A stretch of 64,000 bases of DNA from Candidatus Omnitrophota bacterium (GCA_030681595.1 JAUXSB010000037.1:133708-197707), one strand, 5' to 3'. Counted from the stretch's first letter, positions 1,153-18,794 are shown. Numbers and translations: made by a program. Notes: generated by a model from the letters alone, not told the origin.

Positions 1153-2064
1153 TTAGGATTTTAGGATTTTTTCTATATTAGCGCCTAAGATATTCGTTTT
1201 ATCTTCTTGGGAAATGGCTAAATTTTTTACTGCGTCTATTGAGCCGGTAATGTCTTTTTTTGCCGGCCAATCGCTACCCCATAACAGGTGGCTTGGGCCG
1301 AATAAATCTAGGGCGGCGAGAAAATTAGCCTTATTGGTATCGCCGCTAGTATCCACGTAGATATTTTTTAGGTAATCGCTAGGGTTACCTTTTAAATCTT
1401 TAACAAAATTTATCCCGCGCAGCATCTGGTAGGTAGCATCAAAGCGGTGTTTTAGGAATGGAATTACTCCTCCAAAATGAGCAAAGATAAATTTGATGTC
1501 GCTATAATCCCTTAGTATGTCTGCCATAAGGAGCTTACCGATGGAGATAGTTGTATCAAAGACATATTCAATTACCGGCGTAAGTAAAGGGTCTTGCACG
1601 CGTTCATAACCGATGGGGTTAACAATTTGGGAATGAATGAAAAGTGGGATATTTTTTCCCCTTGCTTCTTTGAAAACCGGAAGAAAGATTTTGTCATCTA
1701 AATATTTTCCGTTATAGCTCGAGGCTAAAGAAAGCGCTTTAAAGCCCATCTCTTGCGTCGTCCGCTTGATTTCATCGAGCATATCTTGGCCGTTATCTAT
1801 GGGCAGGATTGCCGCGCCTATAAAACGCCCGGGGTGGCGTTTTATTATCTTTCCGACATTGTCATTATAAATCCGCGCAACCCTGCTGATACTGCCCAAT
1901 TTTAAATGCGCATCCGAGGTAGGGTAACTTAAAACTGCTTTATTGATACCTGCCCCATCCATTATTTTTAGCTGCCCCTCAATATCTGACCAGCCTTTAT
2001 GGAAAAAATGCGCATTGTTGATAATTTCTTCCGGCAGCCAGTGGGAATGGGCGTCAATGATCAT
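1153..2064 (-). CDS. Amidohydrolase-2 family (PF04909-like) TIM-barrel metal-dependent hydrolase/decarboxylase
   Basis: 303 aa. N-terminal 'IDAHSHW' metal-binding motif and amidohydrolase-related fold signatures. Confidence 0.55.
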   Translation of the reverse strand: MIIDAHSHWLPEEIINNAHFFHKGWSDIEGQLKIMDGAGINKAVLSYPTSDAHLKLGSISRVARIYNDNVGKIIKRHPGRFIGAAILPIDNGQDMLDEIKRTTQEMGFKALSLASSYNGKYLDDKIFLPVFKEARGKNIPLFIHSQIVNPIGYERVQDPLLTPVIEYVFDTTISIGKLLMADILRDYSDIKFIFAHFGGVIPFLKHRFDATYQMLRGINFVKDLKGNPSDYLKNIYVDTSGDTNKANFLAALDLFGPSHLLWGSDWPAKKDITGSIDAVKNLAISQEDKTNILGANIEKILKS

Positions 2065-2065
2065 A

Positions 2066-2674
2066 TTATTTGTTGGTTAATTCTACTGTATCGATGTAAA
2101 TTACGCTTTTTGCTTCAGCCAGTGGCTCGAATTGAAAGCTTTTAATGGGAAAATCTAATACGGCATTTGCGTCTGCTGTCTGCGGTTGCCAGTCGCCCCG
2201 GGCGAAAAATTCATTGAATAGGCAAACAATCTGTTTCCAGCCCGTAAAATCATCCGTAATTATAAACCGCCACATTTCATTGCCGTTATCCTTAATATCA
2301 AAGGCGATTCTGGTTTTTGAATTACTACCGTAGGCATAAAAACTTATTGAGCTGTATTTTTCCCATGTTATTGCTTCCGGTGTAACCAACCAGGCGGTAT
2401 TTTTGGCATCTAAGCCGAATCCTTTGGCGATCCACATATAGCCGCCGGATACGGCGTCAAATGTAATTTTTAGGGATTGCGCGCCGGAATTTTTTATATT
2501 TGTATCAGCGGTTACCTCAACCGATGAGCCGCTGCCTGAGCCAAAGTCAACAGTACCATTTTCCCCGCCGCAAACAGGGTTTTCAAAATCTTCAATCAGC
2601 AAATTCTTTTCCTGTGCAAAAGAAGGTATCGCAAGCGAGAAAAATAAAATAAAAATAAGTTTTATAATTTTCAC
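2066..2674 (-). CDS. Secreted protein with CBM/CIA30-like beta-sandwich
   Basis: N-terminal signal peptide (MKIIKLIFILFFSLAIPSFA). The rest resembles a carbohydrate-binding module. Weak call. Confidence 0.3.
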   Translation of the reverse strand: MKIIKLIFILFFSLAIPSFAQEKNLLIEDFENPVCGGENGTVDFGSGSGSSVEVTADTNIKNSGAQSLKITFDAVSGGYMWIAKGFGLDAKNTAWLVTPEAITWEKYSSISFYAYGSNSKTRIAFDIKDNGNEMWRFIITDDFTGWKQIVCLFNEFFARGDWQPQTADANAVLDFPIKSFQFEPLAEAKSVIYIDTVELTNK

Positions 2675-2742
2675 TGTTCTCTCCTTTCTGTTTTTAAATT
2701 TGTCATTGGCCTGCCAGCAGGCAGGGATTTTGTCATTTGTCG

Positions 2743-3516
2743 TTATTTATTCGGATGCGCCTGTTTAAATGGGATCACCGGTGCAGTCCATGGCGTCTGC
2801 TGATTGATTATCGCGATTTCTAACGGGCAGACATTTGCCGGAACTGTCAGCGCGAATTTAACCGCGTTCTCTATTGCTTCGGTTGTCATCAGGCGCGATG
2901 TATCGGCGGTTATCTCTTTTAGTTTGCCTGTTAAGTCTGTATCGGTAACACCCGGAAGTATTGAGGTGATTTTTATGCCGTGGTCGCGTACTTCCCAGAA
3001 CAGCCCCTTTAGAAAAGCTTTTAAGCCGACCTTCAACGAACTATAGACGATAAAGCTTCGCGGAACCGGGTCGCATAAGGTTGAGCCGGAAACCATGTTG
3101 ATGATGCTGCCTGATTTTTGTTTAATCATGTCATTTATAACTAGCCTAATCAGACGCACATAACCTAAGTAGTTGGTGTGGGCTAGTCTTTCAAAATCTT
3201 CTATTGGTTGTTCATGAAATGGGTATTGACTGGAGACGCCGGCATTATTGATTAAAATGTCTATTTTACCGAATTTTTCTTTGGTTTTGTTGACTAAATT
3301 TTCCAAGTCTTCTAGCCTTGTTACGTCGCAAGCCACAGGCAAAACTTCTACCTTATATTTCTTGGCGATTTCAGCGGCAGTTTCCTTTAATGAGCCTTCG
3401 CCGCGTGCCGCAATAGTTAAGTTAACTCCTAAACTTGCGCAGGTTTGTGCAATGGCCTTACCAATGCCGCGGCTTGCGCCGGTAACAATTGCGGTTTTTC
3501 CTTTTAGTCCACTCAT
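2743..3516 (-). CDS. SDR-family oxidoreductase (FabG-like ketoreductase)
   Basis: TGASRGIGKAIA Rossmann motif, NNAG motif and a YxxxK-type catalytic region. 257 aa. Confidence 0.8.
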   Translation of the reverse strand: MSGLKGKTAIVTGASRGIGKAIAQTCASLGVNLTIAARGEGSLKETAAEIAKKYKVEVLPVACDVTRLEDLENLVNKTKEKFGKIDILINNAGVSSQYPFHEQPIEDFERLAHTNYLGYVRLIRLVINDMIKQKSGSIINMVSGSTLCDPVPRSFIVYSSLKVGLKAFLKGLFWEVRDHGIKITSILPGVTDTDLTGKLKEITADTSRLMTTEAIENAVKFALTVPANVCPLEIAIINQQTPWTAPVIPFKQAHPNK

Positions 3517-3528
3517 TTTATATGCCTC

Positions 3529-4650
3529 CTACTTTGAAAATAATAAAGCCCTGGCTGAAAACGCCAGCATAATTAAAGCCGCCCCAAAGACTATGAAATG
3601 CAAGTTAAAGCCTTTTTGTATGGTGATACTTCCTAAGGTAACGCCCAACCCGCCTGCCAAAAAACGCACGCTGCTGTTTAAGCTCGCCGCCTCATTTAAA
3701 AATTCTTTCGGTAAATCCGTAAGCCTTGTGGAAAGTCCTGCGTGGTTGAATGTCCACCCCAACCCCCAGATAAGCATAAGCAAGGCCAAAATGAAAACCG
3801 GAAATTTGAATATCAGTAAAAATACGCTAAAAATCATGCAGATTATTCCCCACTCTATTGTTTTGAACCTGCCTTTTGTGTCTGATAGGTGCCCGCCGAT
3901 GAATTCGCCGAATATTCCGCTAAGGCTGGTTAAAGTAATCAGCATGCTGATTAGAAATTGGCTGAAGTTAAATTCTAGAGAGAAGTAAACGCTTAGCCAT
4001 TGCTGGACTCCGTGGAAAAATATGCTTACAAAAAATATATAGGTAAATATGGAAAATACGGTTTTATTCTTTAAAGCAGGCAGATAGTTAATTTTAAAAC
4101 TCGCGGCTTCCCCCTTAAAGCTGGGCAGTTTTATGTAAATCGCGATCCATAATAAGAATCCGCATATTGCCGGAATAATAAAAATCAACCTCCAGTGGAT
4201 GATTCCGCTTAAAAATAAGCCCAGAAGCGAAGCGATAAAAGTGATGCTAAAGAAAGAGCCGACGCAACGGCCCCGGTTTTCTTCGGTTGTGTGATGGGCG
4301 ATTAGGATTAAGACAAGCGGCGTAACTGATGCCCCGAATATGCCCATAAGAAATCTGGCTAAAAAAAGAGTGTTAATATTTTGCGATAAGCCCGCCAATA
4401 AATTGCTTAAAGAAAAGAAAAGCAGAGCGATTAGTTCTATTTTTTTGACATCGAAAGTACGGGCAAGCGGGCCGTAAAAAAGCGCGGCAATGCCGTAAGG
4501 AAGCATATAAAGCCAGACAATACGGCCGGCAACGATTTGGCTGACGCTAAAATCCGCGGATATTGACGGGATTAATGCTGACGCCGCGGCAACATTAAAC
4601 GATAAAAGCGCGCCTTCCAGGCACAAGATAACAAAGGTTACCTTTTTCAT
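3529..4650 (-). CDS. MFS transporter
   Basis: 373 aa, about 12 predicted TM helices, MFS-type loop motifs. Confidence 0.7.
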   Translation of the reverse strand: MKKVTFVILCLEGALLSFNVAAASALIPSISADFSVSQIVAGRIVWLYMLPYGIAALFYGPLARTFDVKKIELIALLFFSLSNLLAGLSQNINTLFLARFLMGIFGASVTPLVLILIAHHTTEENRGRCVGSFFSITFIASLLGLFLSGIIHWRLIFIIPAICGFLLWIAIYIKLPSFKGEAASFKINYLPALKNKTVFSIFTYIFFVSIFFHGVQQWLSVYFSLEFNFSQFLISMLITLTSLSGIFGEFIGGHLSDTKGRFKTIEWGIICMIFSVFLLIFKFPVFILALLMLIWGLGWTFNHAGLSTRLTDLPKEFLNEAASLNSSVRFLAGGLGVTLGSITIQKGFNLHFIVFGAALIMLAFSARALLFSK

Positions 4651-4657
4651 GAATTTT

Positions 4658-4688
4658 AACCAGTAACACCTACGCGGTGTTACTGGTT
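4658..4688. repeat. REP-like palindrome AACCAGTAACACC-TACGC-GGTGTTACTGGTT
   Basis: Perfect 13-bp arms. The core GTAACACC-TACGC-GGTGTTAC is identical to the copy at 9294-9314. It lies about 7 nt upstream of the MFS start codon. Confidence 0.7.
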
Positions 4689-4693
4689 TTAAC

Positions 4694-5134
4694 TTAGGTT
4701 TTTGCTTCTTTTTCTATGACTTCTTTAAATATTTGTAAATTTTCCTTGGAATGCTTGTTAATGAAGCCTTCAACTTGCTCGTCGTTAAATTTGGCTTTTT
4801 CATCCATTTCGAAATGCTGGATCCAGGTCATCTCTATGCCGTTAAGCTTGGCTGTATAAAGCCAGATAATTTTCATATATTTAAAGGGAAATTTTGGCTC
4901 TTCCCGCTCGGAATAGGTAAAGAATTTATCTTTATGAAGCAGGCGCCAGGACTGCCAGGATTTGCCCTCATCATCAGTCAGGCGAAAAGTGATTTTATTG
5001 CCTTCTTTTTTCACTACTTCCGCCTTCTGGTATTCGCCGCCGAATAGCTCTGTCCAACGCGGTATGTCGTTTGAAATGTCAAAGACTAAATCATAAGGCG
5101 CATCAATAATTATAGAATTACACGTATGTCCCAT
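4694..5134 (-). CDS. SRPBCC-superfamily polyketide cyclase/dehydrase-like protein
   Basis: 146 aa, PF03364/PF10604-like helix-grip fold pattern. Clustered with KS/CLF/ACP. Confidence 0.5.
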   Translation of the reverse strand: MGHTCNSIIIDAPYDLVFDISNDIPRWTELFGGEYQKAEVVKKEGNKITFRLTDDEGKSWQSWRLLHKDKFFTYSEREEPKFPFKYMKIIWLYTAKLNGIEMTWIQHFEMDEKAKFNDEQVEGFINKHSKENLQIFKEVIEKEAKT

Positions 5135-5148
5135 TTATCCCTCATTTT

Positions 5149-5466
5149 TTATTGTTTGCCTGATAAACTCAAAAGTATTGCCAAATTTTCGCTAGCACTT
5201 AGTGAATGCGGCGCATTCTTGGGCATAAAAATAAATACCCCCGGCTTCATCTTAATTTTTTTGCCGTTTAAGATAAAGGTGCCTTTGCCTTTTAGGACGG
5301 TTACGGCCGCTTCGCGTGTAGATGTGTGTTCGGAAATATCGCTACCTTTAGCTAAGCACATTAGCGTGTGATTAGAAATATCGGTCTTAATTAAAACCTT
5401 ACTGAAAACCCCTTGCTTGGGAAATTCCATCATTTGTTCTAGGTTTTCAACTAGCGATTTAATCAT
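5149..5466 (-). CDS. Cupin-domain protein
   Basis: 105 aa small beta-barrel with a cupin_2-like G(x)5HxH...E...PxG..H pattern. Confidence 0.55.
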   Translation of the reverse strand: MIKSLVENLEQMMEFPKQGVFSKVLIKTDISNHTLMCLAKGSDISEHTSTREAAVTVLKGKGTFILNGKKIKMKPGVFIFMPKNAPHSLSASENLAILLSLSGKQ

Positions 5467-5472
5467 ATTTTC

Positions 5473-6267
5473 TTATTCTAAAATAGCCACTACCCTTGCC
5501 CAAGCGGCGCCGGTTTTTTTGATTTTTATGGGCAGGCAGTGGATTTTAAAACCGTAGTCGGGTAGTTTATCTAAATTTGCCAGCCGTTCTATGTGTATAA
5601 ATTCTCTTTTTCGGCCATAAAAATGCGTAGGATACAACGGTTTTTTCTGCTCTAAAAATTCCTTGAGCATAAATTTATACGGACGGTCAATGCCCATTGT
5701 ATCGACGCCGAATATTTTTATGCCTCTGTCTAACAGGTAATCTATAGCTGATATATCTATTCCGGGATAATCCGAGAAGTATTTTGGCCCCCCATATAGT
5801 TTATCCGCGCCGGTGCATAAAAGAACGATATCTAAAGGCTTAATCTGGTAGTTGATTTTTATAAGAGCTGCTTCTATATCTTCAGCGTTAATGGTTTCGT
5901 TTGGTTTTTTATGCGTCAGGTTAAGTCTTGCGCCGTTTTGCATACACCATTCCAGCGGGATTTCCTCCGCGGTTTTTGAGGCGCGGCCTTCCGAGCGTGA
6001 TCCGTAGTGATATGAATAATCAAGGTGCGTTCCGATATGCACTGGTGAATGCACGGTTTCTAGAGATAAAAATTCTTCATCCGGTAAGTCTTCTTTTTTA
6101 AGTATGCGCCTACCTAGTAGATATTTAATTCTACCCGTGATGGTTTTACCCATAATCACGCGGTTAAACTTCTCTACACCAGCCGCGTGGTTTACGCGTT
6201 CAATCTTAACCTTATGCACTTCGAATGCCGTATCATCAATCGGTAAACTCAAGTCAATTATCTGCAT
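5473..6267 (-). CDS. Cyclase-family protein (PF04199; kynurenine-formamidase-like fold)
   Basis: HIGTHLDYSYHYG matches the HxGTHxDxPxH signature of the putative cyclase family. Confidence 0.6.
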   Translation of the reverse strand: MQIIDLSLPIDDTAFEVHKVKIERVNHAAGVEKFNRVIMGKTITGRIKYLLGRRILKKEDLPDEEFLSLETVHSPVHIGTHLDYSYHYGSRSEGRASKTAEEIPLEWCMQNGARLNLTHKKPNETINAEDIEAALIKINYQIKPLDIVLLCTGADKLYGGPKYFSDYPGIDISAIDYLLDRGIKIFGVDTMGIDRPYKFMLKEFLEQKKPLYPTHFYGRKREFIHIERLANLDKLPDYGFKIHCLPIKIKKTGAAWARVVAILE

Positions 6268-6279
6268 TTTAGTTTTTAA

Positions 6280-6306: not shown

Positions 6307-6308
6307 GG

Positions 6309-6557
6309 TTATTTAAGTTTTGAATTAGTGAGTTTTGAATTAATGGTATTTGTGATTTGCTCTATAGTGTTGAATTTAGTTACTTCTTTGGCGCTTAGCT
6401 TTGTGCCAAATTCTTTTTCTAGGGCAATTACTGTTTCTACCATTTCGGTTGAATCAACGCCAATGCTATCTTGAAGCGAGATACCATCTTTTAATTCTTC
6501 AGGTTTAATTTTTAATAGTGTAACCAACACATTTTTTATTCTATTTTTTGTTTCCAT
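6309..6557 (-). CDS. Acyl carrier protein
   Basis: 82 aa. DSIGVDSTEMVE motif with the phosphopantetheine-attachment Ser. Confidence 0.75.
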   Translation of the reverse strand: METKNRIKNVLVTLLKIKPEELKDGISLQDSIGVDSTEMVETVIALEKEFGTKLSAKEVTKFNTIEQITNTINSKLTNSKLK

Positions 6558-6572
6558 TTTTTCTCCCTAAAC

Positions 6573-8033
6573 TTAAATATGTACTTCGCCTTTGGTAGCA
6601 CCTGCTTCCCAGCGGTCTACCCCTGCCATTACGTCCTTAAAGCAGAGCTTAGCTAATTGATCAAAGTCGCTTTCTAAGATACGGTGGATTCTTCCGGGCT
6701 TGGAGAAAAATTCGCGCATACACCAAGAGCCGAGTTCGCCTAATTGTTGGGTTGATAGGTGATCTGTAGGCATAACCGGGTGCAGGAAATCCCATTGCAA
6801 AAAGTTAATTGTTTTCGGGTTAATCCAGCTTTTCTTAAGGCCCATCCTCCACATCGGTGAATTTGGCGATGGTGTGACATAGCCAATCCACAAGATATCC
6901 GGGTCTACTTCGTCGGTAAATTCATATCTTTGCTTGATAATTGCTTCGTTGTCATAGTCAAATCCCATCATGATGTCGGCAACGACAGCTATATTCTGCC
7001 GGCGTAATATGTCTATGGTTTTCTTGATGTGGTCAATGGTAATGCCTTTAGCGATTTTCTTTAACTCTTCAGGGGTAGTGACTTCGATTCCGAATACGCC
7101 GATAAAAAGCCCTGTTTCTTTCATTAGGGGTAATATTGATTCACAGTTTACCCAGTCAATGGCGCGGCCTAAAGAAACCCACTTTATCGGGTTATTGGCG
7201 GCTTTTTTTAGCTCGCAGAACTTCTTTACTCTTTCCGGGTTGGTGTTAAAGTTATCGTCTTGCAAGACTACTACTTTTACCCCGTATTTTTTATGCAGGA
7301 GGTTTAATTCTTCAACTACTCTTTCCGGTGATTTTGCGCGCCATTTCAGGAAGTCACTAGGGCTGCGTGGATCATATTGGTCCCATTCATAACAGAATGT
7401 GCAGGCTGAAGGACATCCACGGGAAGTAACCATATCCACAAACGGTTTCCAGTAGGTATGGCCTACATATTTATCCATTGGGAACAAATCGTATGCCGGA
7501 AGCGGAAGCTTATCTAAGTCCATATTCAGCGGGCTATATGGCCCCATTACAGGTTTGCCGTCAACGCGGCTGGTGACACCAGCGACTTTCGCGATATCTT
7601 TTTTCTTATCTATTGCTTCAATTAAATCAGCGAATGATTCCTCTTCGCCCATTACGACGTAATCAACTGCCGGGTTTGCCTCAAGGGTTTCCGTAGGCAT
7701 TGCTGAATACCAAAGCCCGCCGAAAATAATCTTGGTTTTAGGCAGAACTTCTTTTATGCGTTTAGCTGCTTCGTTAAAATGCGCGACCACAGCGTATCCG
7801 CCGTAAGAATGTAATTGCTCGCCTAACACCACGATATCGGGATTTTTCTCTTTTACCTTGGCGGTCATTTCATCGGCTGGGATTTCAAGGGCCTTACAGT
7901 CTAAGACCTCAACATTGTCATAGCCCTTTTCCCTGACATACGCCGCCCAATGCGCGTATAGCTGGTTTGGTGCCACATGTTTTCCGTGCGTTGCCCAAGC
8001 GCCTACTTTAGGCATTACGAATAAAATTTTCAT
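6573..8033 (-). CDS. B12-binding domain-containing radical SAM protein
   Basis: VTSRGCPSACTFCYE (CxxxCxxC) radical-SAM core preceded by an N-terminal cobalamin-binding-like Rossmann domain. 486 aa. Confidence 0.75.
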   Translation of the reverse strand: MKILFVMPKVGAWATHGKHVAPNQLYAHWAAYVREKGYDNVEVLDCKALEIPADEMTAKVKEKNPDIVVLGEQLHSYGGYAVVAHFNEAAKRIKEVLPKTKIIFGGLWYSAMPTETLEANPAVDYVVMGEEESFADLIEAIDKKKDIAKVAGVTSRVDGKPVMGPYSPLNMDLDKLPLPAYDLFPMDKYVGHTYWKPFVDMVTSRGCPSACTFCYEWDQYDPRSPSDFLKWRAKSPERVVEELNLLHKKYGVKVVVLQDDNFNTNPERVKKFCELKKAANNPIKWVSLGRAIDWVNCESILPLMKETGLFIGVFGIEVTTPEELKKIAKGITIDHIKKTIDILRRQNIAVVADIMMGFDYDNEAIIKQRYEFTDEVDPDILWIGYVTPSPNSPMWRMGLKKSWINPKTINFLQWDFLHPVMPTDHLSTQQLGELGSWCMREFFSKPGRIHRILESDFDQLAKLCFKDVMAGVDRWEAGATKGEVHI

Positions 8034-8050
8034 TGTAACCCCTTTCTTTT

Positions 8051-10592: not shown

Positions 10593-10631
10593 AACTTTAC
10601 ATTTTAAGCATTGCTTAAAATGTAAAGTTAT
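10591..10631. repeat. 41-bp perfect palindrome (AACTTTACATTTTAAGCA arms), copy 2
   Basis: Identical to 116-156 except for the central base. Abuts the KS-alpha start codon. Confidence 0.7.
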
Positions 10632-11245: not shown

Positions 11246-12241
11246 TTAACTTTTGACAAGAGTTAATAATTCTTCTTTGCTAAAAAACTTTCCCGTTTTT
11301 TCAACCTGATGCACCATCTGGGTTAATTTTTCATTAAGCGGCGCGGAAATGCCGTTTTTTTTGGCTAAATTCACAAATTCTCCGTTGATATAGTCTATTT
11401 CAGATGCCTTGCCTCTTTTTATACTCTGTAAAATTGAGCCGTAAAGCGGCTCGCGGCTTAGATTAAACATAATATTAGAAAAAATCTTTGCTGCTTCATC
11501 GTGTGGCATATTGGCAAGCGCTACATATCGTTTAATGTCAAATTCCGGTAATGATACCGGTTTAATTCCGGCTTTAGCTGTGATATCAAAGGCCTCTTTA
11601 AGCAGTTGAATACTTATTGCGGCCATCTCTACTTCTTTAAATGTCTCTTGCATACTGAAGCCTACGACTGCAGGGATACAATTATTTAAGTTTATGAAGA
11701 GCTTTGTCCATTTCATCCCTTTTATTTGTTCGGAAATAGTAGTTTTAAAGGCGCGGTTTAAAACTTGCTCAACTTCTTTCAGTTTTTCGTCGATTTTTCC
11801 GTTTGATCTACCAATAATCCAGCCGCCCTCAAAGTTATGCGTGATATGGCCGTAATCTAAGTGGGTAGCACCGAACATTACGATACTGGAAATAATATCC
11901 GCGCCTTTAATAGATTGCGCGACAATTTCATCAGCACGTATCCCGTTTTGGGTAGTAAGGATAATGCTATTTTTTAAAAATTCCTCGTTTTGGGCTACTA
12001 CCTCATTTATGTCTTGAGTTTTGACTGCTAAAATTGCTAAGTCAGCAGGTGTATTCAACTTGGTGTCGGCGTCTATCTTAACGTTAATTTTTCCGCGTAC
12101 CCCATCTATCGCAAGCCCGCTTTTCTTGATAGCTTCAGCTTGTTCTTTTTTGGCAATCAGTGCGACATCACAGCCTTTATCTTTTAGATAAGCCGCAACT
12201 ACCCCCCCAATTGCTCCTGCGCCAATAACAATGATTCTCAT
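11246..12241 (-). CDS. 2-dehydropantoate 2-reductase family (ApbA/PanE-like) oxidoreductase
   Basis: N-terminal IVIGAGAIGG Rossmann and a KPR-like C-terminal domain. 331 aa. Confidence 0.65.
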   Translation of the reverse strand: MRIIVIGAGAIGGVVAAYLKDKGCDVALIAKKEQAEAIKKSGLAIDGVRGKINVKIDADTKLNTPADLAILAVKTQDINEVVAQNEEFLKNSIILTTQNGIRADEIVAQSIKGADIISSIVMFGATHLDYGHITHNFEGGWIIGRSNGKIDEKLKEVEQVLNRAFKTTISEQIKGMKWTKLFINLNNCIPAVVGFSMQETFKEVEMAAISIQLLKEAFDITAKAGIKPVSLPEFDIKRYVALANMPHDEAAKIFSNIMFNLSREPLYGSILQSIKRGKASEIDYINGEFVNLAKKNGISAPLNEKLTQMVHQVEKTGKFFSKEELLTLVKS

Positions 12242-12283: not shown

Positions 12284-12562
12284 TTATTTCGGATAACCGT
12301 ATTTTTTATAATCAAATCCGCTTTTTTCTAACAATCGCACCATCATACTATAAAACGGCGACGGCACGTCAGAGAAAAAGGCGAAGATTACGTCTTGCTC
12401 TTCAACTTGGCCGGCATTACGCCTAAAGGCATTTTCCTCTGCCCTTTTAGTGACGACGCTTTCGGTAATCCGACGGTGAAAAACCGGAATCTTTTCAATC
12501 ATTGCCTTAAATTTTTGCTGAATCTCGCTATCCCAGTTCATTTTATCTTTTACGCAAACCAC
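12284..12562 (-). CDS. Small PCP_red-like (PF08369) domain protein
   Basis: W..E....KIPVFHRR...V..AEENA pattern resembles the protochlorophyllide-reductase C-terminal domain. 92 aa. Weak call. Confidence 0.3.
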   Translation of the reverse strand: MVCVKDKMNWDSEIQQKFKAMIEKIPVFHRRITESVVTKRAEENAFRRNAGQVEEQDVIFAFFSDVPSPFYSMMVRLLEKSGFDYKKYGYPK

Positions 12563-14043
12563 GACGTAACCAAAGACCTGCCTGTGGGGTTTAGGTCAAT
12601 GTTTACGTGCTTGGTTTGGGTGTATTCTAGGAGTCCTTCTTTGCCGAGTTCGCGGCCAAAACCACTTTCCTTGTATCCGCCAAAGGGCGCTTCGTTATAA
12701 AAGCCGCCGTAGGTATTTATCCAGACGGTTCCGCAGCGAAGTTGCGCTGCCACCTGATTTGCCCGGTTTAAATCTTTGGTCCAGACCATAGCTGCTAAGC
12801 CAAATTTTGTGTCATTGGCGATCTTAATTGCCTGATCTTGTCCGGAAAACTTAATGATAGATAATACCGGCCCAAAAATCTCTTCCTGCGCAATCCGCGC
12901 GTTATTATCCACATCTATAAATATCGTCGGCTCCAAATAAAACCCTTTTTCTAACCGTTTCCCACCTCCGAGGTGGGCAAGGGGGATGATGCCGCCAGAG
13001 ATGAGTTTGGCTTCTTTTTTACCGATTTCGATATAATCTAAAACGGTTTGGCGATGTTCTCTTGAGATAAGCGGGCCAAAGTCGGTATCATAAGATATGG
13101 CATTTCCGATTTTAAGTTTTTTGGTTTTGGCAACCAATAATTCTATAAATTTATCGTAAATTTTATCTTCTAAAATTAGGCGCGATCCGGCTGTGCACAT
13201 CTGTCCTTGATTCATGAATATTGCCGACATTGCCCCGCCCACTGCCGCCTCTATATCACAGTCGGCAAATACAATATTCGGGCTTTTGCCGCCTAATTCA
13301 AGAGAGAGTTTTTTGGTGCTGCCCGAAGCCATTTTCATTATTTCTTTTCCCGCAGTATTTCCTCCGGTAAAAGAAATCATATCTACGAGTTTGCTTTCGG
13401 TTAAGGTCGCGCCTACTTCCTTGCCTGTGCCGGTAATAATATTTACTACACCATTGGGTAAGCCCGCCTCTTGTATTATTTTGGCTAATTCTAAGCAGCT
13501 TAAGGATGCAAGTTGTGAAGGCTTAAAAACAACCGTATTCCCTAAAATAATTGCCGGTGCTATTTTCCAAGCGGCCATTAAAAATGGGTAATTCCATGGG
13601 ATAATCTGGCCGATGACGCCTACTGGCTCTTTGAGGGTAAAGCTTAATGCCGGATTATGAATCGGAATTGTTTCGCCTTTTATTTCGGTTGCGGCCGCGG
13701 CAAAGTATTCAAATGCAGATGCGGCAGTAGGTATATCAATAAAAGTAGTCTGTTTTATGGTTTTTCCGGTATCAAGTGATTCTAATTTAGCCAATTCGTC
13801 AGCCTTTTCTCTTATGAGTTGCGCGATTTTTTGAAGGTAAGGTGCTCGTTCAATAAGCGGCATTTTAGGCCAGTCGCCGGAGTCAAAAGCGAGCCTTGCC
13901 GCTTTAATTGCGGTTTCTGTATCGCGAGCGTCTGCCGCGGGAAATTCCGCTAGAATTTCGCCGGTTGAGGGATTAATGCTTGCAATGGCCTTGCCTGCGT
14001 TAACCCAAGTGTTGTCTATGTACATGTTATATTGTTTAAGCAT
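12550..14043 (-). CDS. NAD(P)+-dependent aldehyde dehydrogenase
   Basis: ALDH family. Catalytic Cys in GQMCTAGSR and Glu in ELGGKSP. 497 aa. Confidence 0.85.
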   Translation of the reverse strand: MLKQYNMYIDNTWVNAGKAIASINPSTGEILAEFPAADARDTETAIKAARLAFDSGDWPKMPLIERAPYLQKIAQLIREKADELAKLESLDTGKTIKQTTFIDIPTAASAFEYFAAAATEIKGETIPIHNPALSFTLKEPVGVIGQIIPWNYPFLMAAWKIAPAIILGNTVVFKPSQLASLSCLELAKIIQEAGLPNGVVNIITGTGKEVGATLTESKLVDMISFTGGNTAGKEIMKMASGSTKKLSLELGGKSPNIVFADCDIEAAVGGAMSAIFMNQGQMCTAGSRLILEDKIYDKFIELLVAKTKKLKIGNAISYDTDFGPLISREHRQTVLDYIEIGKKEAKLISGGIIPLAHLGGGKRLEKGFYLEPTIFIDVDNNARIAQEEIFGPVLSIIKFSGQDQAIKIANDTKFGLAAMVWTKDLNRANQVAAQLRCGTVWINTYGGFYNEAPFGGYKESGFGRELGKEGLLEYTQTKHVNIDLNPTGRSLVTSWFA

Positions 14044-14054
14044 ATTTAATCTCC

Positions 14055-14095
14055 ATAACTTTACATTTTAAGCAATGCTTAAAATGTAAAGTTAT
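14055..14095. repeat. 41-bp perfect palindrome, copy 3
   Basis: Identical to 116-156. It fills the intergenic space, followed by GGAG (RBS) and the ALDH ATG. Confidence 0.7.
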
Positions 14096-15120
14096 TTAAC
14101 GGGAGCTAGCTTCCATAAATCGAAAATACGGTTAAAAGGAGCATACCAGCGCGAGAGTTTTGCCATATCGCCTTTTAATTTAAGCTTACGTTGGGTTGCC
14201 GCGGCAAAAGGATCAAGTCTTCTGTCAAAAACCATGCGCCAGACTGCCGCAGGCCCTGAAATTACGAACTCCGCGTCTTCGTCATTGGTTACGGTATCAA
14301 TCTTACCTTTATTAAAATGAAAATTATAGATTCTGTTTTCTTCGTCAACCTTGATAGCAAGTTTTGTGGTTAAATTAAGCGCCTCCCCCTTTTCCTTTAC
14401 TTCCTTATCCTCATTAACCAAAGAAACTATCTTTTTGATATGCTCTTGCGAAAACAAATCGTATTTTTCACCAATGTCCACCCCCGCCGGATTGAGCGCG
14501 CCCGAACAGCGTTCGGTCAGGCGGGAGTCGGGTTGGCCCGCGGTGGAATTTACTGTTGATGCCATTAAGGCGATGTTTACTTTACAGGCTTCTTCTAATG
14601 CTTCTGCCCAAGAGAATGCTTCTTTAAAATTTGAGCCTACTGAAATTATGCCATGTTTTTTTAAGACAACGATGTTGCTTAGGCTTAGCGCTTCTAAAAC
14701 CGGCAAAACATTTGTTACAACCGGGCCATCCTGTTCAATCACCGGTATATTCGATAGATAAAGGCGCGCTTCATAGCTGAATATATCCAATGTGTTAAAT
14801 TTAGCGTAAAAGGCAGTGGTGAAATTAGGATGGGCATGAATAACCGCGCCAACTTGTTCATTTTTATACGCGCCTAAATGCATAGCGATTTCTGAAGTCG
14901 GCTTATGTGTTGTTTCTTCAAGCGGCACACCGTTTTTATCTACCGGGATAATTTCATCTTTTTCTAAATACCCTAAATAGGCATTATGCGCGGTGACTAA
15001 AAATTTATCCTTATCTATGCGTAAAGAAATATTTCCGCAAGGCCCGTTGATAAAGGAACGATTATGCAGTTCTTTTGCCCAGAAAATTATTTCTTCTTTT
15101 TGTTCTAAAAAATATTTCAT
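14092..15120 (-). CDS. Class-II aldolase/adducin-domain protein fused to a C-terminal SCP2-like domain; candidate 5-deoxyribulose/methylthioribulose-1-P aldolase of a DHAP shunt
   Basis: N-terminal aldolase_II motifs (AVIHAHPNFTTAF). C-terminal SCP2-like region (FVISGPAAVWRMVFD...LKLKGDMAKL). The inter-domain linker carries an in-frame GC-rich repeat insert at 14496-14537. Confidence 0.6.
   Translation of the reverse strand: MKYFLEQKEEIIFWAKELHNRSFINGPCGNISLRIDKDKFLVTAHNAYLGYLEKDEIIPVDKNGVPLEETTHKPTSEIAMHLGAYKNEQVGAVIHAHPNFTTAFYAKFNTLDIFSYEARLYLSNIPVIEQDGPVVTNVLPVLEALSLSNIVVLKKHGIISVGSNFKEAFSWAEALEEACKVNIALMASTVNSTAGQPDSRLTERCSGALNPAGVDIGEKYDLFSQEHIKKIVSLVNEDKEVKEKGEALNLTTKLAIKVDEENRIYNFHFNKGKIDTVTNDEDAEFVISGPAAVWRMVFDRRLDPFAAATQRKLKLKGDMAKLSRWYAPFNRIFDLWKLAPVK
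14496..14537. repeat. GC-rich ~42-bp element (GCGCGCCCGAACAGCGTTCGGTCAGGCGGGAGTCGGGTTGGC) inside a CDS
   Basis: Near-identical copy at 45394-45435 in intergenic DNA, 38 of 42 bases matching. Contains the hairpin CCGAAC..GTTCGG. Strongly GC-rich against AT-rich flanks. Confidence 0.6.
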
Positions 15121-15542
15121 TGTAAGTTTTCGTTTTGCGGCGCAATAGTTCTTATTTTTTTAACAGTAACCTTTTTACCTAAAAATGTCTTCGCGTCTTT
15201 ATCCAAAAATTTGGTGTTTGCGTTTTCGCCTTTTAAGATTTCTACGGGGATCTTATGCCAGTCTGCGAGAATTTTTACGGTATGCGCGCCGCAGGGAAAT
15301 TTATTATCAGAGCCGAATAAATATACTTGTTTAATGCGCCCTGTAAAAAACATATGGCCTAAGGCGTTGTCCGATATGAGCGTAGAGTTGATTCCCGCTT
15401 TCTTAAGTTTGTTTATCAGTATTTTTGGCCCGATTAATTGAGGCCGCATTTCAGAGATAAGGATATTTTCTTTTTTATGTTCTCGGCAAAAATTGTCGCA
15501 AGGTATGCCGTATATTAACGAGTATGTATTTATTTTACCCAT
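15117..15542 (-). CDS. Small eIF-2B/MtnA-family fragment-like protein
   Basis: GKINTYSL and GINSTLISDNALG...FGSD segments resemble motifs of the eIF2B/MtnA fold but are short and permuted. Could be a degenerate paralog. Confidence 0.3.
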   Translation of the reverse strand: MGKINTYSLIYGIPCDNFCREHKKENILISEMRPQLIGPKILINKLKKAGINSTLISDNALGHMFFTGRIKQVYLFGSDNKFPCGAHTVKILADWHKIPVEILKGENANTKFLDKDAKTFLGKKVTVKKIRTIAPQNENLQ

Positions 15543-16537
15543 TTTTTTGCAAATTCCCCGGGGGTGTATATCTGGTCGAAAAAAATAAGGCCCGTGATCA
15601 GGCTTGACGGTACAACATCAAAAGAAGGGTATATCGCTTCCTGGCTTTTTGGGGCAAGACAGCTCTTTTCAAAAACAAGCATTTCTTCTTTTGGACGGTA
15701 TTCAATTTTGATATCTTTTATGCTTTTGGTGTCACCCGGTGGCTGCACAAAACAGTAAAACGGAACACCATAATGTTTTGCCAATATAGCCAGTTGGTAT
15801 GTGCCTAATTTATTTACGATGTCGCCTTTAAGCGTAACGCGGTCAGAGCCGACAAGCACCATATCTATCCGGCATCTTTTTAGAATATCCCCTGCTTGTA
15901 TATCACAGATAAGATATGTGTTGGCATTAGCGCGGTTGAGCTCCCAAGCTGTAAGGCGTGCCCCTTGAAAATATGGGCGGGTTTCTGTGGCAAAGAACTC
16001 AACGGATTTACCTAATTTTTCCGCTTCAGCAAACATTGTAACCAATTCGCCGGAAACGTTGCAATGCGTAAGGATTCTTGCGGATTGCGGCAGTATCCCC
16101 GCGGCCAGCCTGGCACGATGACGGCGGGCATTTTGTATGGAATCGATATAAGTAAGGATTATTATCTTAATCAGGGAAATAAAACTTCCCTCTTCTTTAT
16201 TATTTTTCAGCATGCTGAGGAGTTCATTGTTTAGCTGGCTAAAAGCAAAAGTCGGCCTTGTCTGTATAAATTTTTCTGTGATGGAGCGCGATAATTTGCT
16301 AAAACTTTTGAGGTTTGTTATTTCGTTTTTTTTTGCTTCTAATATCAACGTGTAATAGAACAAAAGCACTTGTCCGAACGCGCGCGTTTTCATTTGCCTA
16401 AGCACGTAAAGCGCACCGTTTAACCCGCTTACTTTAATGTATTCTTGCTTAAACGGAAGCAAGGTTTCGTCTAAAACGGCAATGTGGCCGCCTTTAAATA
16501 TGACTGGGTTAAAAAGAGGTGATTCCGGAATGTTCAT
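15530..16537 (-). CDS. eIF-2B alpha/beta/delta family sugar-1-phosphate isomerase (MtnA-like; methylthioribose- or 5-deoxyribose-1-P isomerase)
   Basis: ETRPYFQGARLTAWEL and VGSDRV..GDIVNKLGTYQLAILAKHYGVPFY motifs typical of MtnA. 335 aa. Confidence 0.7.
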   Translation of the reverse strand: MNIPESPLFNPVIFKGGHIAVLDETLLPFKQEYIKVSGLNGALYVLRQMKTRAFGQVLLFYYTLILEAKKNEITNLKSFSKLSRSITEKFIQTRPTFAFSQLNNELLSMLKNNKEEGSFISLIKIIILTYIDSIQNARRHRARLAAGILPQSARILTHCNVSGELVTMFAEAEKLGKSVEFFATETRPYFQGARLTAWELNRANANTYLICDIQAGDILKRCRIDMVLVGSDRVTLKGDIVNKLGTYQLAILAKHYGVPFYCFVQPPGDTKSIKDIKIEYRPKEEMLVFEKSCLAPKSQEAIYPSFDVVPSSLITGLIFFDQIYTPGEFAKKWVK

Positions 16538-17283
16538 TTATTTTCTAATAATTTAATTGCCTCAAGCGATACTTTTATGATGTTTTGTTCAGCTTCGTAA
16601 TAATTCATATTGGTAAAACCCATCTCTCCAGTGATAACATTATCGGATACCGCGGTAATGGCAGCGCCTTTGCAATTAGATAGCTGAGCAATGGTTAAGA
16701 AGCTGGATGAGACCATGTCTACCGCAATCGCACCCAATGAAGCATATTTTTCTACAATTTCGCGTGTTTCACGAAGCAGCGCGTCTGTTGTCCAAATGGG
16801 CCCTTTATGGTAGCGAAGCCCTAATTTTTCCGCAGCAGATGCTAAAGCATTAGTTAGTTTCGGGTCAGCAACGGTTTTAAAATCGTCTTTAACGTAATAC
16901 GGCGTTACCCCTTCTCCCCTTATTACACTTGTTACAATTATTAGGTCGCCGACCTGTATATCTTCTTTGAGCGCACCACTCGAGCCGCACCTGATTAAAT
17001 TTTCTACACCGCCGTTACATAAGATTTCTGCGCTTATGGCGCTGTCTGCGGAGTACCTTCCGCCATTTCCTGTTGTGACTTTAGTCCCGTTGAAATCTCC
17101 CGAATAAAAAGTATATTCCATAAACGAAAAATTACGCACAGGGTTTTTTATATGTTTTAAGACTGCGTCGCGCCTGTCTGCCGGGCCGGGGACTATTGCA
17201 TATTTTCCGAAATCTCCCGGTTTAATTTGAAGCATATATAACAGTTCTTTCGCGGTTAGGTGGATATCCTTTTTCATTCTCAC
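16534..17283 (-). CDS. PNP/UDP-1 family nucleoside phosphorylase (MTA/5'-dAdo phosphorylase candidate)
   Basis: PNP_UDP_1 fold with a phosphate-binding N-terminal region (VPGPADRRD). 249 aa. Confidence 0.6.
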   Translation of the reverse strand: MRMKKDIHLTAKELLYMLQIKPGDFGKYAIVPGPADRRDAVLKHIKNPVRNFSFMEYTFYSGDFNGTKVTTGNGGRYSADSAISAEILCNGGVENLIRCGSSGALKEDIQVGDLIIVTSVIRGEGVTPYYVKDDFKTVADPKLTNALASAAEKLGLRYHKGPIWTTDALLRETREIVEKYASLGAIAVDMVSSSFLTIAQLSNCKGAAITAVSDNVITGEMGFTNMNYYEAEQNIIKVSLEAIKLLENK

Positions 17284-18794
17284 TTGGAACTCCTTTTTAG
17301 TAATTCCTTATCTATTTTTCCTGTTCGATTTTTAGGAAGCGAATCAATAAATTCAATAGCATGCGGCACCTTAAAATGCGCAAGGTGTTGTTCACAAAAA
17401 ACACGGAGATCTTTTTCGGTTAACGCGCTTTGGTTGCTTTTGACTACAAACGCTTTGACTATCTCTCCGCGGAGTTTATCCGGCATGCCTATTACCGCTG
17501 TCTCGATTATATCTTGATGTTTCTGGATTACGGATTCAACTTCAGGCGCATAAACAAGCTGGCCCGCCGCTTTAATCATTTCTTTTTTTCTCCCGGCAAT
17601 GTAGAGAAAACCGTCTTCATCAAATCTGCCTAAGTCTCCGGTGTGGAACCATCCGTTTTTTAACACGCGGTTTGTTTCTTCCGTGTTTTTGTAATAACCT
17701 TTCATTACTACCCAGCTTTTTATGGCGATTTCACCTATTTCTCCGGGCGCCACAGGTTCGCTAAATTCATCAATGACCGCAATTTGAACCCATGGGGCAG
17801 GTTTTCCTACGCTGGCAATATTTTTGCTGCCTAACGGGATAACGGTATTTGGCGGGCAGGTCTCGGTAAGCCCCCAGCCATTTAATAGATGCGTATTTGG
17901 GCAGTGTTGGTTAAAGCGCGCCAATACTTCAGGCGCGCTTGGCGCGCCAAACACCACCATCCAGCGTAAGCTTGATAAGTCATGTTTCTCAAATTCCTTT
18001 AACTGTAAAATAGCGTAATACATTGATGGTACGATATGAAAACAACTAACCCTGTACTTTTCGATAAGTTTTAAGAATTCAAGCGGAGAAAATCTCTCCA
18101 TCAGGATAAGCGTTATGCCGAAAATAAGAGAATTTTGCAAATATATAAGCCCGCCGCTATGCGAAAGCGGAAGGCAGCAAAGCTTAATGTCCGTGTCTGT
18201 TAAGTCCACAAAATATCTCATTGCTTCGGGAGAGCCATCTAAGTGCCTGTAGTTTAATAGCACCCCTTTGGGTAAACCGCTTGTGCCGGAAGTATACATT
18301 ATTAACGCGTCATCGTCCGGCGATATTTCATTTTCGGTAATTTTTGTTTTTGCTTCGTTTAAGATCTTATCAAAGTCTATACTTGTTTTTATTTCTTCGC
18401 TTGATTCTCCTTTAATGATAACTTTTTGCAAGGGCTCTGCCTCATTTTTTATTTTTGCCAGAGAAATGCCGTGCCGCGGCTGGGCGATTAAGGCTTTGGC
18501 TTCTGAATGCCTAAGGTATAGGATTATTTCCTCTTCCTTGAGCATAAAATCAAGAGGAATAACGACTGCCCCTAAAGAGAATAAGGCAAGATAGCTATAG
18601 ATATATTCCGGCGAGTTTGCCAGGTATATTGCCACCTTATCCTGCTTTTTTATTCCGACTATACTTAAGGCACAGGCGAGTTTAAAGACAATATCTTTTA
18701 GCTGGCTAAAGGATATTGTCTTATCGTTGAAGATTAAAGCAGGTTTGTCCGGGTATTTTTGCGCGTTTTTAATGAGAAAAGATTTTGTATCCAT
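17280..18794 (-). CDS. AMP-dependent acyl-CoA synthetase/ligase
   Basis: AMP-binding motif MYTSGTSGLPKGV and a C-terminal ANL domain. 504 aa. Confidence 0.8.
   Translation of the reverse strand: MDTKSFLIKNAQKYPDKPALIFNDKTISFSQLKDIVFKLACALSIVGIKKQDKVAIYLANSPEYIYSYLALFSLGAVVIPLDFMLKEEEIILYLRHSEAKALIAQPRHGISLAKIKNEAEPLQKVIIKGESSEEIKTSIDFDKILNEAKTKITENEISPDDDALIMYTSGTSGLPKGVLLNYRHLDGSPEAMRYFVDLTDTDIKLCCLPLSHSGGLIYLQNSLIFGITLILMERFSPLEFLKLIEKYRVSCFHIVPSMYYAILQLKEFEKHDLSSLRWMVVFGAPSAPEVLARFNQHCPNTHLLNGWGLTETCPPNTVIPLGSKNIASVGKPAPWVQIAVIDEFSEPVAPGEIGEIAIKSWVVMKGYYKNTEETNRVLKNGWFHTGDLGRFDEDGFLYIAGRKKEMIKAAGQLVYAPEVESVIQKHQDIIETAVIGMPDKLRGEIVKAFVVKSNQSALTEKDLRVFCEQHLAHFKVPHAIEFIDSLPKNRTGKIDKELLKRSSK

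Follow-up and report, generated by a model that had tools for sequence, protein, structure and literature searches.

A conserved type II polyketide synthase-like gene cluster with an embedded nucleoside module in Candidatus Omnitrophota

Results

We analyzed a 64,000-nt stretch of DNA from a Candidatus Omnitrophota bacterium (GCA_030681595.1 JAUXSB010000037.1:133708-197707), hereafter the window, which carries a gene cluster of the type II polyketide synthase (PKS) kind on its minus strand, from position 18794 to position 1153 in the numbering of the whole window. Genes were called from a listing of open reading frames (ORFs) together with Pfam and NCBIfam profile scans of the window proteins, and selected proteins were compared by sequence with the PDB. 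The cluster comprises 20 minus-strand genes in an unbroken run, with intergenic gaps of 74 bp or less throughout and several overlapping ORFs. In the 5' half these encode an AMP-forming ligase, a PNP_UDP_1 phosphorylase, an MtnA-like isomerase, an IF-2B-like ORF of 141 amino acids (aa), an aldolase-SCP2 fusion, an aldehyde dehydrogenase (ALDH), a DUF2621-like protein, a reductase of the ketopantoate reductase (KPR) family, a tandem TIGR04076 protein and a catalytic ketosynthase (KS-alpha). The 3' half continues with a chain-length factor (CLF, or KS-beta), a B12-binding radical S-adenosylmethionine (SAM) enzyme (rSAM), an acyl carrier protein (ACP), a PF04199 cyclase, a cupin, an SRPBCC protein, a major facilitator superfamily (MFS) transporter, a short-chain dehydrogenase/reductase (SDR), a CBM_11-like protein and an Amidohydro_2 protein. 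We consider it probable that the whole run from 18794 to 1153 is transcribed as a single PadR-repressed operon.

An earlier note, made from the sequence alone, had described a KS-alpha/CLF type II PKS-like operon with a B12-binding rSAM, a tandem TIGR04076 protein and a PadR regulator and operator upstream. That description was borne out, and every gene it listed lies on the minus strand where it had been placed; its list lacked the phosphorylase, both isomerase ORFs, the aldolase-SCP2 fusion, the DUF2621-like, CBM_11-like and Amidohydro_2 genes, and an upstream rhodanese lipoprotein gene. Its guess of an acetogen-like host was wrong in taxon: the window CLF has a 100% identical counterpart, encoded on a 300-kb contig, in an NCBI 'Candidatus Omnitrophota bacterium' metagenome-assembled genome (MAG). 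A Firmicute acetogen was rejected as the host on the basis of this identity and because the related loci come nearly all from Omnitrophota.

The KS-alpha gene (9321..10592) encodes the motifs STGCTAGT, NAHGSST and IGHPL, and the CLF gene (8051..9280; VADRASS) lies 40 bp downstream of it. Both proteins were realigned to E. coli FabF, in which the catalytic positions are C163/H303/H340 and the triad histidines fall in the NAHG and GH motifs. KS-alpha has C/H/H at these positions, and this triad is invariant in 53 orthologs; the CLF has Arg/Asp/Asn, and its DRA[SG]S motif, with Asp-Arg at and before the Cys position, is likewise invariant in 53 orthologs. The earlier note had recognized the loss of the catalytic Cys and the first His from the KS-beta, which stands, but the second His is lost as well. 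The best PDB matches of KS-alpha were AntD (6smo_B; 373 bits) and the Act KS (371 bits), with FabF at 351 bits.

We placed both proteins in a neighbor-joining tree (412 columns, 100 bootstraps; a distance method with limited taxon sampling), with controls consisting of a Streptomyces KS-alpha/CLF pair encoded beside a TcmI cyclase, a Bacillus bombysepticus plasmid pair, E. coli FabF and FabB, and a Bacillus FabF. The Omnitrophota proteins fell inside the KS-alpha and CLF clades, with 100% bootstrap support each and apart from FabF/FabB. Neither KS groups with FabF/FabB in this tree, and the CLF lacks the whole triad, so the outcome that the earlier note named as refuting it on these points did not occur. 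A housekeeping type II fatty acid synthase (FAS) was rejected on the same grounds: the CLF has no triad, both KSs lie outside the FabF group, and the operon has no genes for a dehydratase, enoyl reductase or acyltransferase.

When the CLF was searched against a library of representative sequences, the top of the list was swamped by multi-KS type I megasynthases, leaving 14 usable single-domain matches. Asp-Arg occupies the active-site position in 9 of the 13 nearest 50%-cluster representatives, including those of C. beijerinckii/C. puniceum, Ktedonobacter, Archangium and Paenibacillus. Arg also occurs in the B. bombysepticus CLF partner, and the Streptomyces control has Gln. The window CLF does not carry this Gln, the actinobacterial hallmark at the Cys-equivalent position, but Arg. 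The Cys-to-Arg exchange, which had been singled out as a distinguishing oddity, is therefore common among non-actinobacterial CLFs, and we rejected it as a unique feature.

A conservation scan retaining one genome per species yielded 55 loci, 53 of which have a CLF 65-84% identical to that of the window; all window proteins were compared with these loci by tblastn. The loci are nearly all labeled Omnitrophota, with ten third-party MAGs carrying other labels. The same gene order was found in ~53 species-level genomes, and it is near invariant: (PadR), DUF2621-like, KPR, TIGR04076x2, KS-alpha, CLF, rSAM, ACP, cyclase, (cupin), SRPBCC, (MFS), SDR, (CBM_11-like), Amidohydro_2, phosphorylase, isomerase, aldolase-SCP2 and ALDH, where parentheses mark the variable members. 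Median identity is ~80% for KS-alpha, the CLF, the rSAM, TIGR04076, the SRPBCC protein and the SDR, 54% for the KPR-family reductase, and 40-59% for the phosphorylase-to-ALDH module. Synteny in relatives, left by the earlier note as a check on its cluster, accordingly extends over ~53 species. The 'unusual host context' suspected there did not hold up, as the operon is phylum-wide in Omnitrophota and no odd one-off.

A PadR-family regulator is encoded upstream (19486..20004, minus strand; PF03551 E 1.7e-14), and in 19 related loci a homolog with ~40% identity immediately precedes the cluster. The 125-bp leader contains a sigma-70-like promoter, TTGACA-17-TAAAAT (18826..18854, minus strand), which agrees with the consensus at 11 of 12 positions and scored highest of all sites in 600-20200. 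Operator 1 is the perfect palindrome TAGTAAAATTTTACTA (18819..18834), which shares bases with the -10 element of this promoter and forms the core of a 28-bp perfect palindrome (18813-18840). Operator 2, TAGTAAAATTTGACTA (18794..18809), immediately adjoins the start codon of the ligase gene and is offset by 25 bp from operator 1. The 16-bp palindrome gives 4 strand matches against 0.07 expected, so that the regulator and palindromic operator reported previously at the 5' end are confirmed, with the palindrome present twice. Across 58 loci the motif TAGTAAAWTTTNACTA was found in 36, always just upstream of the first cluster gene, and on sequence grounds it is a phylogenetic footprint marking the start of the operon. 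Because the window operator lies upstream of the ligase gene, the nucleoside module described below falls inside the regulated unit. Between PadR and the operator sits a gene for a rhodanese-domain lipoprotein (18920..19492, minus strand; PF00581 E 4e-14), which has no homolog in any of the 55 related loci and is confined to the window genome; its membership in the system is doubtful.

The remaining genes of the 3' half add a largely aromatic set of functions, all on the minus strand. Next to the ACP (6309..6557; PF00550 E 4e-10), which has a candidate phosphopantetheinylation site 'GVDST', lies a PF04199 'putative cyclase' of the OxyN type, which acts on second or third rings (5473..6267; PF04199 E 6e-28); a PDB sequence search with it returned only weak isatin-hydrolase matches. 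A small accessory cupin (5149..5466; PF07883 E 5e-12), present in only 6 loci, precedes a monodomain TcmN-type aromatase/cyclase of the SRPBCC family (4694..5134), whose PDB matches include the TcmN aromatase/cyclase (2rez, E 1.3e-25) and a chain named 'Polyketide cyclase' (3tl1, E 1.4e-22). The MFS transporter (3529..4650; PF07690 E 5e-41), a likely exporter found in 21 loci, is accessory. The SDR ketoreductase (2743..3516; PF00106 E 4e-52) is the most conserved cluster protein, with a median identity of 85%; a PDB search matched it to FabG proteins and glucose dehydrogenases of a generic kind, with no polyketide ketoreductase of the actinorhodin type among the matches. A secreted CBM_11-like beta-sandwich protein (2066..2674; PF03425 E 4e-20), also accessory, has the signal-peptide-like N terminus MKIIKLIFILFFSLAIPSFAQE. 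The last operon gene in the window encodes an Amidohydro_2 protein resembling non-oxidative aromatic-acid decarboxylases (1153..2064; PF04909 E 2.5e-27), with the LigW 5-carboxyvanillate decarboxylase (E 1e-23), gamma-resorcylate decarboxylase and ACMSD as its best PDB matches.

Pfam and NCBIfam scans of the operon's ORFs detected no dehydratase or enoyl reductase. FabZ, FabA and MaoC-like genes, which would be expected of an aryl-polyene or highly reducing type II PKS, are missing, and two cyclase types are present. Taken together, the TcmN-type aromatase/cyclase, the PF04199 cyclase and the LigW-like decarboxylase favor an aromatic polyketide over a lipid or polyene as the predicted product. 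The earlier note had seen no classical aromatic pattern and had proposed a lipid or polyene; the accessory set (TcmN, PF04199, cupin, LigW-type) and the lack of dehydratase and enoyl reductase genes contradict it.

Three further genes lie directly upstream of the KS pair. The tandem TIGR04076 protein (10628..11245) consists of two Cys/His-rich repeats and scores 97.6 bits against the model, in two stretches, above the cutoff of 33. Fifty loci encode it (median identity 79%), and at least 756 distinct 90%-identity clusters match it at E<=1e-5; the 120 matches listed are all near full length, at 77-93% identity. Structure prediction and a fold search gave no fold assignment for it. The KPR-family (ApbA/PanE) NAD(P)H oxidoreductase (11246..12241) matches PF02558 and PF08546 and scores 189 bits against TIGR00745 (cutoff 141). 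The small DUF2621-like protein (12284..12562; 92 aa) matches PF11084 at E 3e-5, below the gathering score; 45 loci have it, at 67% median identity, and in most relatives its gene comes first after the operator. The two most divergent Omnitrophota clusters, L047 and L048 (CLF 65% identical), have a DUF4440 (NTF2/SnoaL-like) ORF (e.g., L048:7910-8374) in place of the tandem TIGR04076 gene, and a CdiI_3-like ORF lies inside the cluster.

The class B (B12-binding) rSAM (6573..8033) combines PF02310 and PF04055 and has the motif CPSACTFC. No NCBIfam model reached its cutoff with this protein; the best match was BchE (TIGR02026; 204 bits, cutoff 481), the ladderane model TIGR04072 scored 79 bits against a cutoff of 360, and partial similarity to HpnJ and HpnR was seen. 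C-methylation, the default guess for class B enzymes, is the most likely predicted chemistry, and BchE-like oxidation or cyclization is possible. One cluster (L032) was provisionally taken as an Omnitrophota variant without an rSAM and rejected as such, since its rSAM gene sits after the SDR. We also rejected ladderane and aryl-polyene identities for the operon, given the TIGR04072 score, the missing dehydratases and the cyclases.

The 5' half of the window operon holds the nucleoside module. The first gene (17280..18794) encodes an AMP-forming acyl-CoA or acyl-ACP ligase (PF00501 and PF13193; PRK06187 459 bits, cutoff 476). Its PDB matches were generic FadD, 4CL and oxalate ligases, which allowed no substrate call, and only 6 of ~45 loci with upstream coverage have it. 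The second (16534..17283; PF01048) encodes a hexameric NP-I family (purine) nucleoside phosphorylase, predicted to act on 5'-deoxyadenosine or methylthioadenosine (MTA). Uridine phosphorylase (UP) and the hexameric Sulfolobus MTA phosphorylase (MTAP) 1jds were its top PDB matches, identifying the hexameric DeoD/UP/SsMTAP type; the C-terminal 'AVSDN' resembles, as we read the sequence, the DeoD 'SDH' Asp motif, and the MTAP model TIGR01694 scored 24 bits (cutoff 275). An MtnA-like (IF-2B family) sugar-1-phosphate isomerase follows (15530..16537; PF01008 E 6e-45), below the MtnA cutoffs (PRK05720 209 versus 271; TIGR00512 198 versus 279), and then the 141-aa IF-2B-like ORF (15117..15542; weak PF01008 match), which probably represents the C-terminal end of the isomerase, split off here; in L058 a single 485-aa protein comprises both.

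Next comes a class II (metal-dependent) aldolase with a C-terminal SCP2-like domain (14092..15120; PF00596 E 1e-33, PF02036 E 2.5e-10). In an AlphaFold2 model (pLDDT 88), its N-terminal domain matches FucA and DrdA (6btg, target-normalized TM-score 0.78), and the top 50 Foldseek matches of the whole model covered the aldolase half only. The metal ligands E77, H95, H97 and H156 are invariant in 31 homologs, and the fusion is kept in every cluster arrangement seen. The module closes with an NAD(P)+-dependent ALDH (12550..14043; PF00171 E 6e-178; BADH-like 579 bits, cutoff 669), which comes after the aldolase wherever flanking sequence reaches far enough. None of the rSAM, ALDH, ligase and module proteins reached an equivalog cutoff in NCBIfam. 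The consecutive, overlapping PF01048, PF01008 and PF00596 ORFs constitute the operonic trio of the dihydroxyacetone phosphate (DHAP) shunt, or 5-deoxyribose salvage, matching described 5-deoxyribose/DHAP-shunt clusters (PMC6079011). By their family assignments, the phosphorylase, isomerase, aldolase and ALDH form a DHAP-shunt-like module, with predicted substrates. This module, which the earlier note had not recognized, is the operon's most unusual feature.

At least five arrangements link this module to the cluster, on either side of it: upstream with the ligase (the window and L003); downstream of Amidohydro_2, the majority type; upstream beside a relocated rSAM (L047 and L048); downstream with the rSAM moved beside Amidohydro_2 (L032, L066 and L067); and with a fold-IV aminotransferase in place of the phosphorylase (L056 and L066). 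In the rearranged types the rSAM gene adjoins the module or Amidohydro_2, and every Omnitrophota cluster with sufficient flanking sequence has both the module and the rSAM. The aminotransferase (L056:7833-8642 and L066:7830-8639; 269 aa) is branched-chain aminotransferase/aminodeoxychorismate lyase-like and sits between Amidohydro_2 and the isomerase. In L067 (12426-14275), genes for a phosphopantetheinyl transferase (PPTase; ACPS) and an AMP-ligase come straight after that for the ALDH, a pairing that recalls AntB/AntG of the Photorhabdus anthraquinone system.

A homolog of the module also stands alone. On a contig without PKS genes (L058:6005-9195) we found a homologous phosphorylase, the fused isomerase (485 aa) and a long aldolase (324 aa), in which no SCP2 domain was detected despite the extra length. 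Genes for MarR and CCG-domain proteins precede them, and a few genes downstream a Mo-dependent aldehyde oxidoreductase (Fer2, MoCoBD and FAD subunits) is encoded. By analogy, the stand-alone module indicates a small-molecule (small nucleoside) substrate.

Elsewhere in the window, a Wood-Ljungdahl corrinoid Fe-S block (30150-36129) encodes an AcsE-like methyltransferase, AcsD, a CooC-like ATPase, an RACo activator and AcsC, confirming the corrinoid genes noted before; the block is consistent with the acetogenic Omnitrophota lineages that have been described (PMC10066038). A tRNA-Tyr(GUA) gene (21145-21495, minus strand) has its anticodon loop split by a 267-nt group I intron (Rfam RF00028 match at 21248-21469, 103 bits), and was found by ARAGORN with the intron option and missed by default ARAGORN. 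Directly upstream of it, and overlapping its 5' exon, a 234-aa ORF (21388-22092) has a LAGLIDADG-like look and no Pfam match. Between this tRNA and a tRNA-Gly, a 255-aa ORF (20130-20897) partially matches the thymidylate synthase family (PF00303 E 1e-10, profile positions 108-224). A c-di-GMP-I riboswitch (45724-45817, plus strand; RF01051, 70 bits) precedes a 101-aa signal-peptide ORF (45936-46241, plus strand), and adjoining it are two very large, secreted-looking minus-strand proteins (46337-49147 and 49151-52447) with SdrD_B, pilus-N and ILEI domains.

Discussion

We read the operon as an 'ancestral' clostrubin-type aromatic type II PKS pathway with a 5'-deoxyadenosine-recycling module, and in our judgment this is fairly probable. 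KS-alpha, the Arg-type CLF and the ACP would build a poly-beta-keto chain, with the tandem TIGR04076 protein probably assisting as a PKS partner. The TcmN-type aromatase/cyclase and the PF04199 cyclase would fold the chain into rings, the LigW-like Amidohydro_2 would remove a terminal carboxylate, and the SDR and KPR-like reductase would adjust keto groups. Oxygen-independent tailoring would fall to the B12-binding rSAM, by C-methylation most likely or possibly by BchE-like oxidation or cyclization, and the MFS pump and the secreted beta-sandwich protein may handle export. The module would most likely convert the 5'-deoxyadenosine released stoichiometrically by the rSAM to adenine, DHAP and acetate, thereby relieving product inhibition of the rSAM and recovering carbon. 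For the narrower claim that the module is dedicated to this by-product, we put the odds at about even, which makes it the option we favor. The L058 module, standing without a PKS, argues for a small nucleoside substrate.

Several observations weigh against this reading. In its PDB search the CLF reached 299 bits with FabF but 259 bits with the Act CLF; 'ancestral' non-actinobacterial CLFs are often labeled FAS by classifiers, and FabF-leaning scores are typical of them (PMC10132072). The rSAM is closest to BchE rather than to a known C-methyltransferase. All module proteins fall below the equivalog cutoffs, so that by sequence the substrate could be 5'-deoxyadenosine, MTA, adenosine or uridine, and salvage does not explain the aminotransferase that replaces the phosphorylase in L056 and L066. 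A by-product salvage route is not expected under a pathway-specific repressor, and the SCP2-like domain and the AMP-ligase beside the module (window, L003 and L067) could mean that the acid product is used and not discarded. Finally, that the C. beijerinckii locus compared below (L059) is the published clostrubin clr cluster is presumed from the species match.

The possible use of the acid leads to an alternative in which the module supplies a building block: 5'-deoxyadenosine or MTA would yield, by way of the sugar-1-phosphate and ketose-1-phosphate, a C2 aldehyde and then, through the ALDH, an acid (acetate or methylthioacetate), loaded by the ligase or another activating enzyme as a PKS starter. 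By analogy this would resemble the route from 5'-fluorodeoxyadenosine to fluoroacetate in S. cattleya, or SalL/SalT on the way to chloroethylmalonyl-CoA and salinosporamide. The Gln of the Act CLF is thought to prime with acetate, and the Arg-type CLF lacks it. Ligase, phosphorylase, isomerase, aldolase and ALDH lie directly behind the operator in the window and in L003, the order in L067 is aldolase, ALDH, PPTase and AMP-ligase, the module stands under the pathway's own operator and is retained in every arrangement seen, and the SCP2 domain on the aldolase would suit biosynthetic use of a C2 acid, as would the parallel with fluoroacetaldehyde formation (PMC6079011). Yet the ligase is present in only ~6 of the 45 loci with upstream coverage, the operon encodes no halogenase-like or other SAM-cleaving enzyme, and 5'-deoxyadenosine would give plain acetate, which is not scarce in a Wood-Ljungdahl organism. 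With a homologous module found apart from any PKS in L058 and a C. beijerinckii relative that works without the module, we regard this supply route as unlikely, though it is the strongest of the alternatives.

The same domain and gene linkages bear on two further explanations. If the PKS and the module were unrelated neighbors in a phylum with conserved synteny, the lower identity of the module (40-59% versus ~80% for the PKS core) and its existence alone in L058 would be expected; but it adjoins the cluster in at least five arrangements and on either side, sits in the window inside an operator-controlled unit with ORFs overlapping or nearly abutting, and is lacking from no Omnitrophota cluster with enough flank, and we find chance juxtaposition quite improbable. 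Rather more improbable still is adenosylation followed by trimming, in which the rSAM would add the 5'-deoxyadenosyl radical to the polyketide (cf. MqnE and HpnH), the phosphorylase (cf. HpnG and MqnB), isomerase and aldolase-SCP2 would trim the ribose to a two-carbon aldehyde arm, and the ALDH would oxidize this arm to a carboxymethyl group. The conserved SCP2-like lipid-binding domain, the co-migration of the rSAM gene with the module in rearranged clusters, the membership of HpnG in the PNP_UDP_1 family and the partial similarity of the rSAM to HpnJ and HpnR all fit such a scheme. The B12-binding domain of the rSAM, however, is typical of methyl transfer or rearrangement, and to our knowledge the known adenosylating rSAMs are without one; the L058 module, with its long aldolase, has no rSAM or PKS nearby, and the aldolase catalytic domain is like those of the small-substrate enzymes FucA and DrdA.

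The system suggested originally, a FAS-, ladderane- or aryl-polyene-like pathway to a modified lipid or polyene, is to us the least probable of all. It could draw on the FabF-leaning CLF score, the presence of a B12-binding rSAM and the antiSMASH 'ladderane' calls reported for Omnitrophota MAGs (PMC9902471), and it is opposed by both KSs lying in aromatic type II PKS clades, by the TcmN aromatase/cyclase, PF04199 cyclase and aromatic-acid decarboxylase, by the TIGR04072 score far below its cutoff, by the lack of an encoded dehydratase or enoyl reductase, and by the homology of the core to the locus of C. beijerinckii, a clostrubin producer.

The Omnitrophota, an uncultivated phylum, consist mostly of ultra-small bacteria whose genomes are reduced (PMC10066038). 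A core with ~80% identity and the same operator over more than 50 species, where such clusters are usually patchy and strain specific, suggests that the product is part of basic Omnitrophota biology. It is tentatively conceivable, but we think it unlikely, that the module closes an rSAM-PKS loop, its C2 acid priming or decorating a core Omnitrophota molecule. The acid would then derive from 5'-deoxyadenosine, MTA or an adenosylated intermediate, and the product might be, for example, a redox carrier or host-interaction factor, not a strain-specific antibiotic. Three leads emerge: an Arg-type CLF clade near the KS/CLF split, the recurrence of TIGR04076 as a partner, sometimes fused to an ACP, in type II PKSs of anaerobes, and a DHAP-shunt module hard-wired to a B12-binding rSAM tailoring step. 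We know of no other biosynthetic cluster with the last of these, no search for precedents having been made.

Comparison with known systems

A bulk catalogue of CLFs includes a count of KS-CLF pairs from 'Candidatus Omnitrophica' (PMC10132072). In the literature searched, we found neither the operon described nor its conservation across the phylum, its operator, its link to TIGR04076 or the DHAP-shunt module within it; nothing was found on Omnitrophota and ketosynthases, nothing informative on TIGR04076 and no description of the clr gene content, and the cluster is not taken up in the Omnitrophota survey paper.

The four-step enzyme order of the module is also that of the fluorometabolite pathway of Streptomyces cattleya (FlB phosphorylase, isomerase, aldolase and dehydrogenase), running from a 5'-substituted 5'-deoxyadenosine through a sugar-1-phosphate and a ketose-1-phosphate to a C2 aldehyde and a C2 acid; the S. 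cattleya pathway includes a fluoroacetaldehyde dehydrogenase step. The Omnitrophota operon has no fluorinase- or chlorinase-type SAM enzyme, and the C5' substituent is presumably H. With the DHAP shunt (MtnP or DrdK, MtnA/DrdI and Ald2/DrdA) the module shares the operonic trio, a DrdA-like aldolase and the conserved metal ligands. It differs in lying within a PKS operon under a PadR operator, in its SCP2-bearing aldolase and split isomerase, in the ALDH after the aldolase, and in its phosphorylase, which is of the hexameric DeoD/UP and not the MTAP type. The rSAM has the B12-binding and radical SAM domains and the CX3CX2C motif of BchE and other class B enzymes, in the context of a polyketide operon.

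Actinorhodin and tetracenomycin PKSs have in common with the Omnitrophota operon a KS-alpha/CLF pair in the same KS clades, a discrete ACP, a TcmN-like aromatase/cyclase, a cupin and a ketoreductase. Unlike these actinobacterial systems, the Omnitrophota operon has Arg and not Gln in its CLF, encodes no O2-dependent oxygenases, relies on rSAM tailoring and resides in an anaerobic host.

The nearest CLFs outside Omnitrophota are those of C. beijerinckii and C. puniceum (44-45% identity), the reported producers of clostrubin; the KS-CLF-ACP-TcmN-OxyN architecture has been discussed as ancestral (PMC7693217). The C. beijerinckii locus (L059, GCA_013296325.1) has, in this order, KS-alpha (47%), the CLF (44%), a 175-aa TIGR04076-ACP fusion after the CLF (L059:11260-11787), a PF04199 cyclase (46%) and an SRPBCC protein (41%). 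Further on come a 96-aa free TIGR04076 (L059:15656-15946), 4 kb downstream of the fusion, then Amidohydro_2 (35%) and an ACP. Because TIGR04076 is fused to an ACP there and a second, free copy is present, the sequence comparison suggests that TIGR04076 is a component or recurrent partner of type II PKSs in anaerobes.

Seven components are shared between the two loci, largely in the same order, at 34-47% identity and in anaerobic hosts: KS-alpha, the Arg-type CLF, TIGR04076, the ACP, the PF04199 cyclase, the monodomain TcmN-type SRPBCC protein and Amidohydro_2. Judged by these, the Omnitrophota core is homologous to the C. beijerinckii/C. puniceum locus. KSIII, FrsA-like hydrolases, DUF362/DUF169 and PPTases are specific to Clostridium and missing from the Omnitrophota operon, which in turn adds the B12-binding rSAM, the KPR-like reductase, the DUF2621-like protein, the SDR, the PadR operator and the DHAP-shunt-like module. 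The two loci also differ in TIGR04076, a free tandem protein in Omnitrophota and an ACP fusion in Clostridium, and in the residues at the CLF triad (R/D/N in Omnitrophota, R/E/H in Clostridium). The Clostridium locus occurs in few strains, whereas the Omnitrophota operon is phylum-wide. The ancestral non-actinobacterial aromatic type II PKS group that holds the clostrubin-type locus also includes the dendrubin, AQ-256 and pyxidicycline systems. The Omnitrophota operon belongs with the aromatic type II PKSs of the anaerobe type, as a variant with new features.

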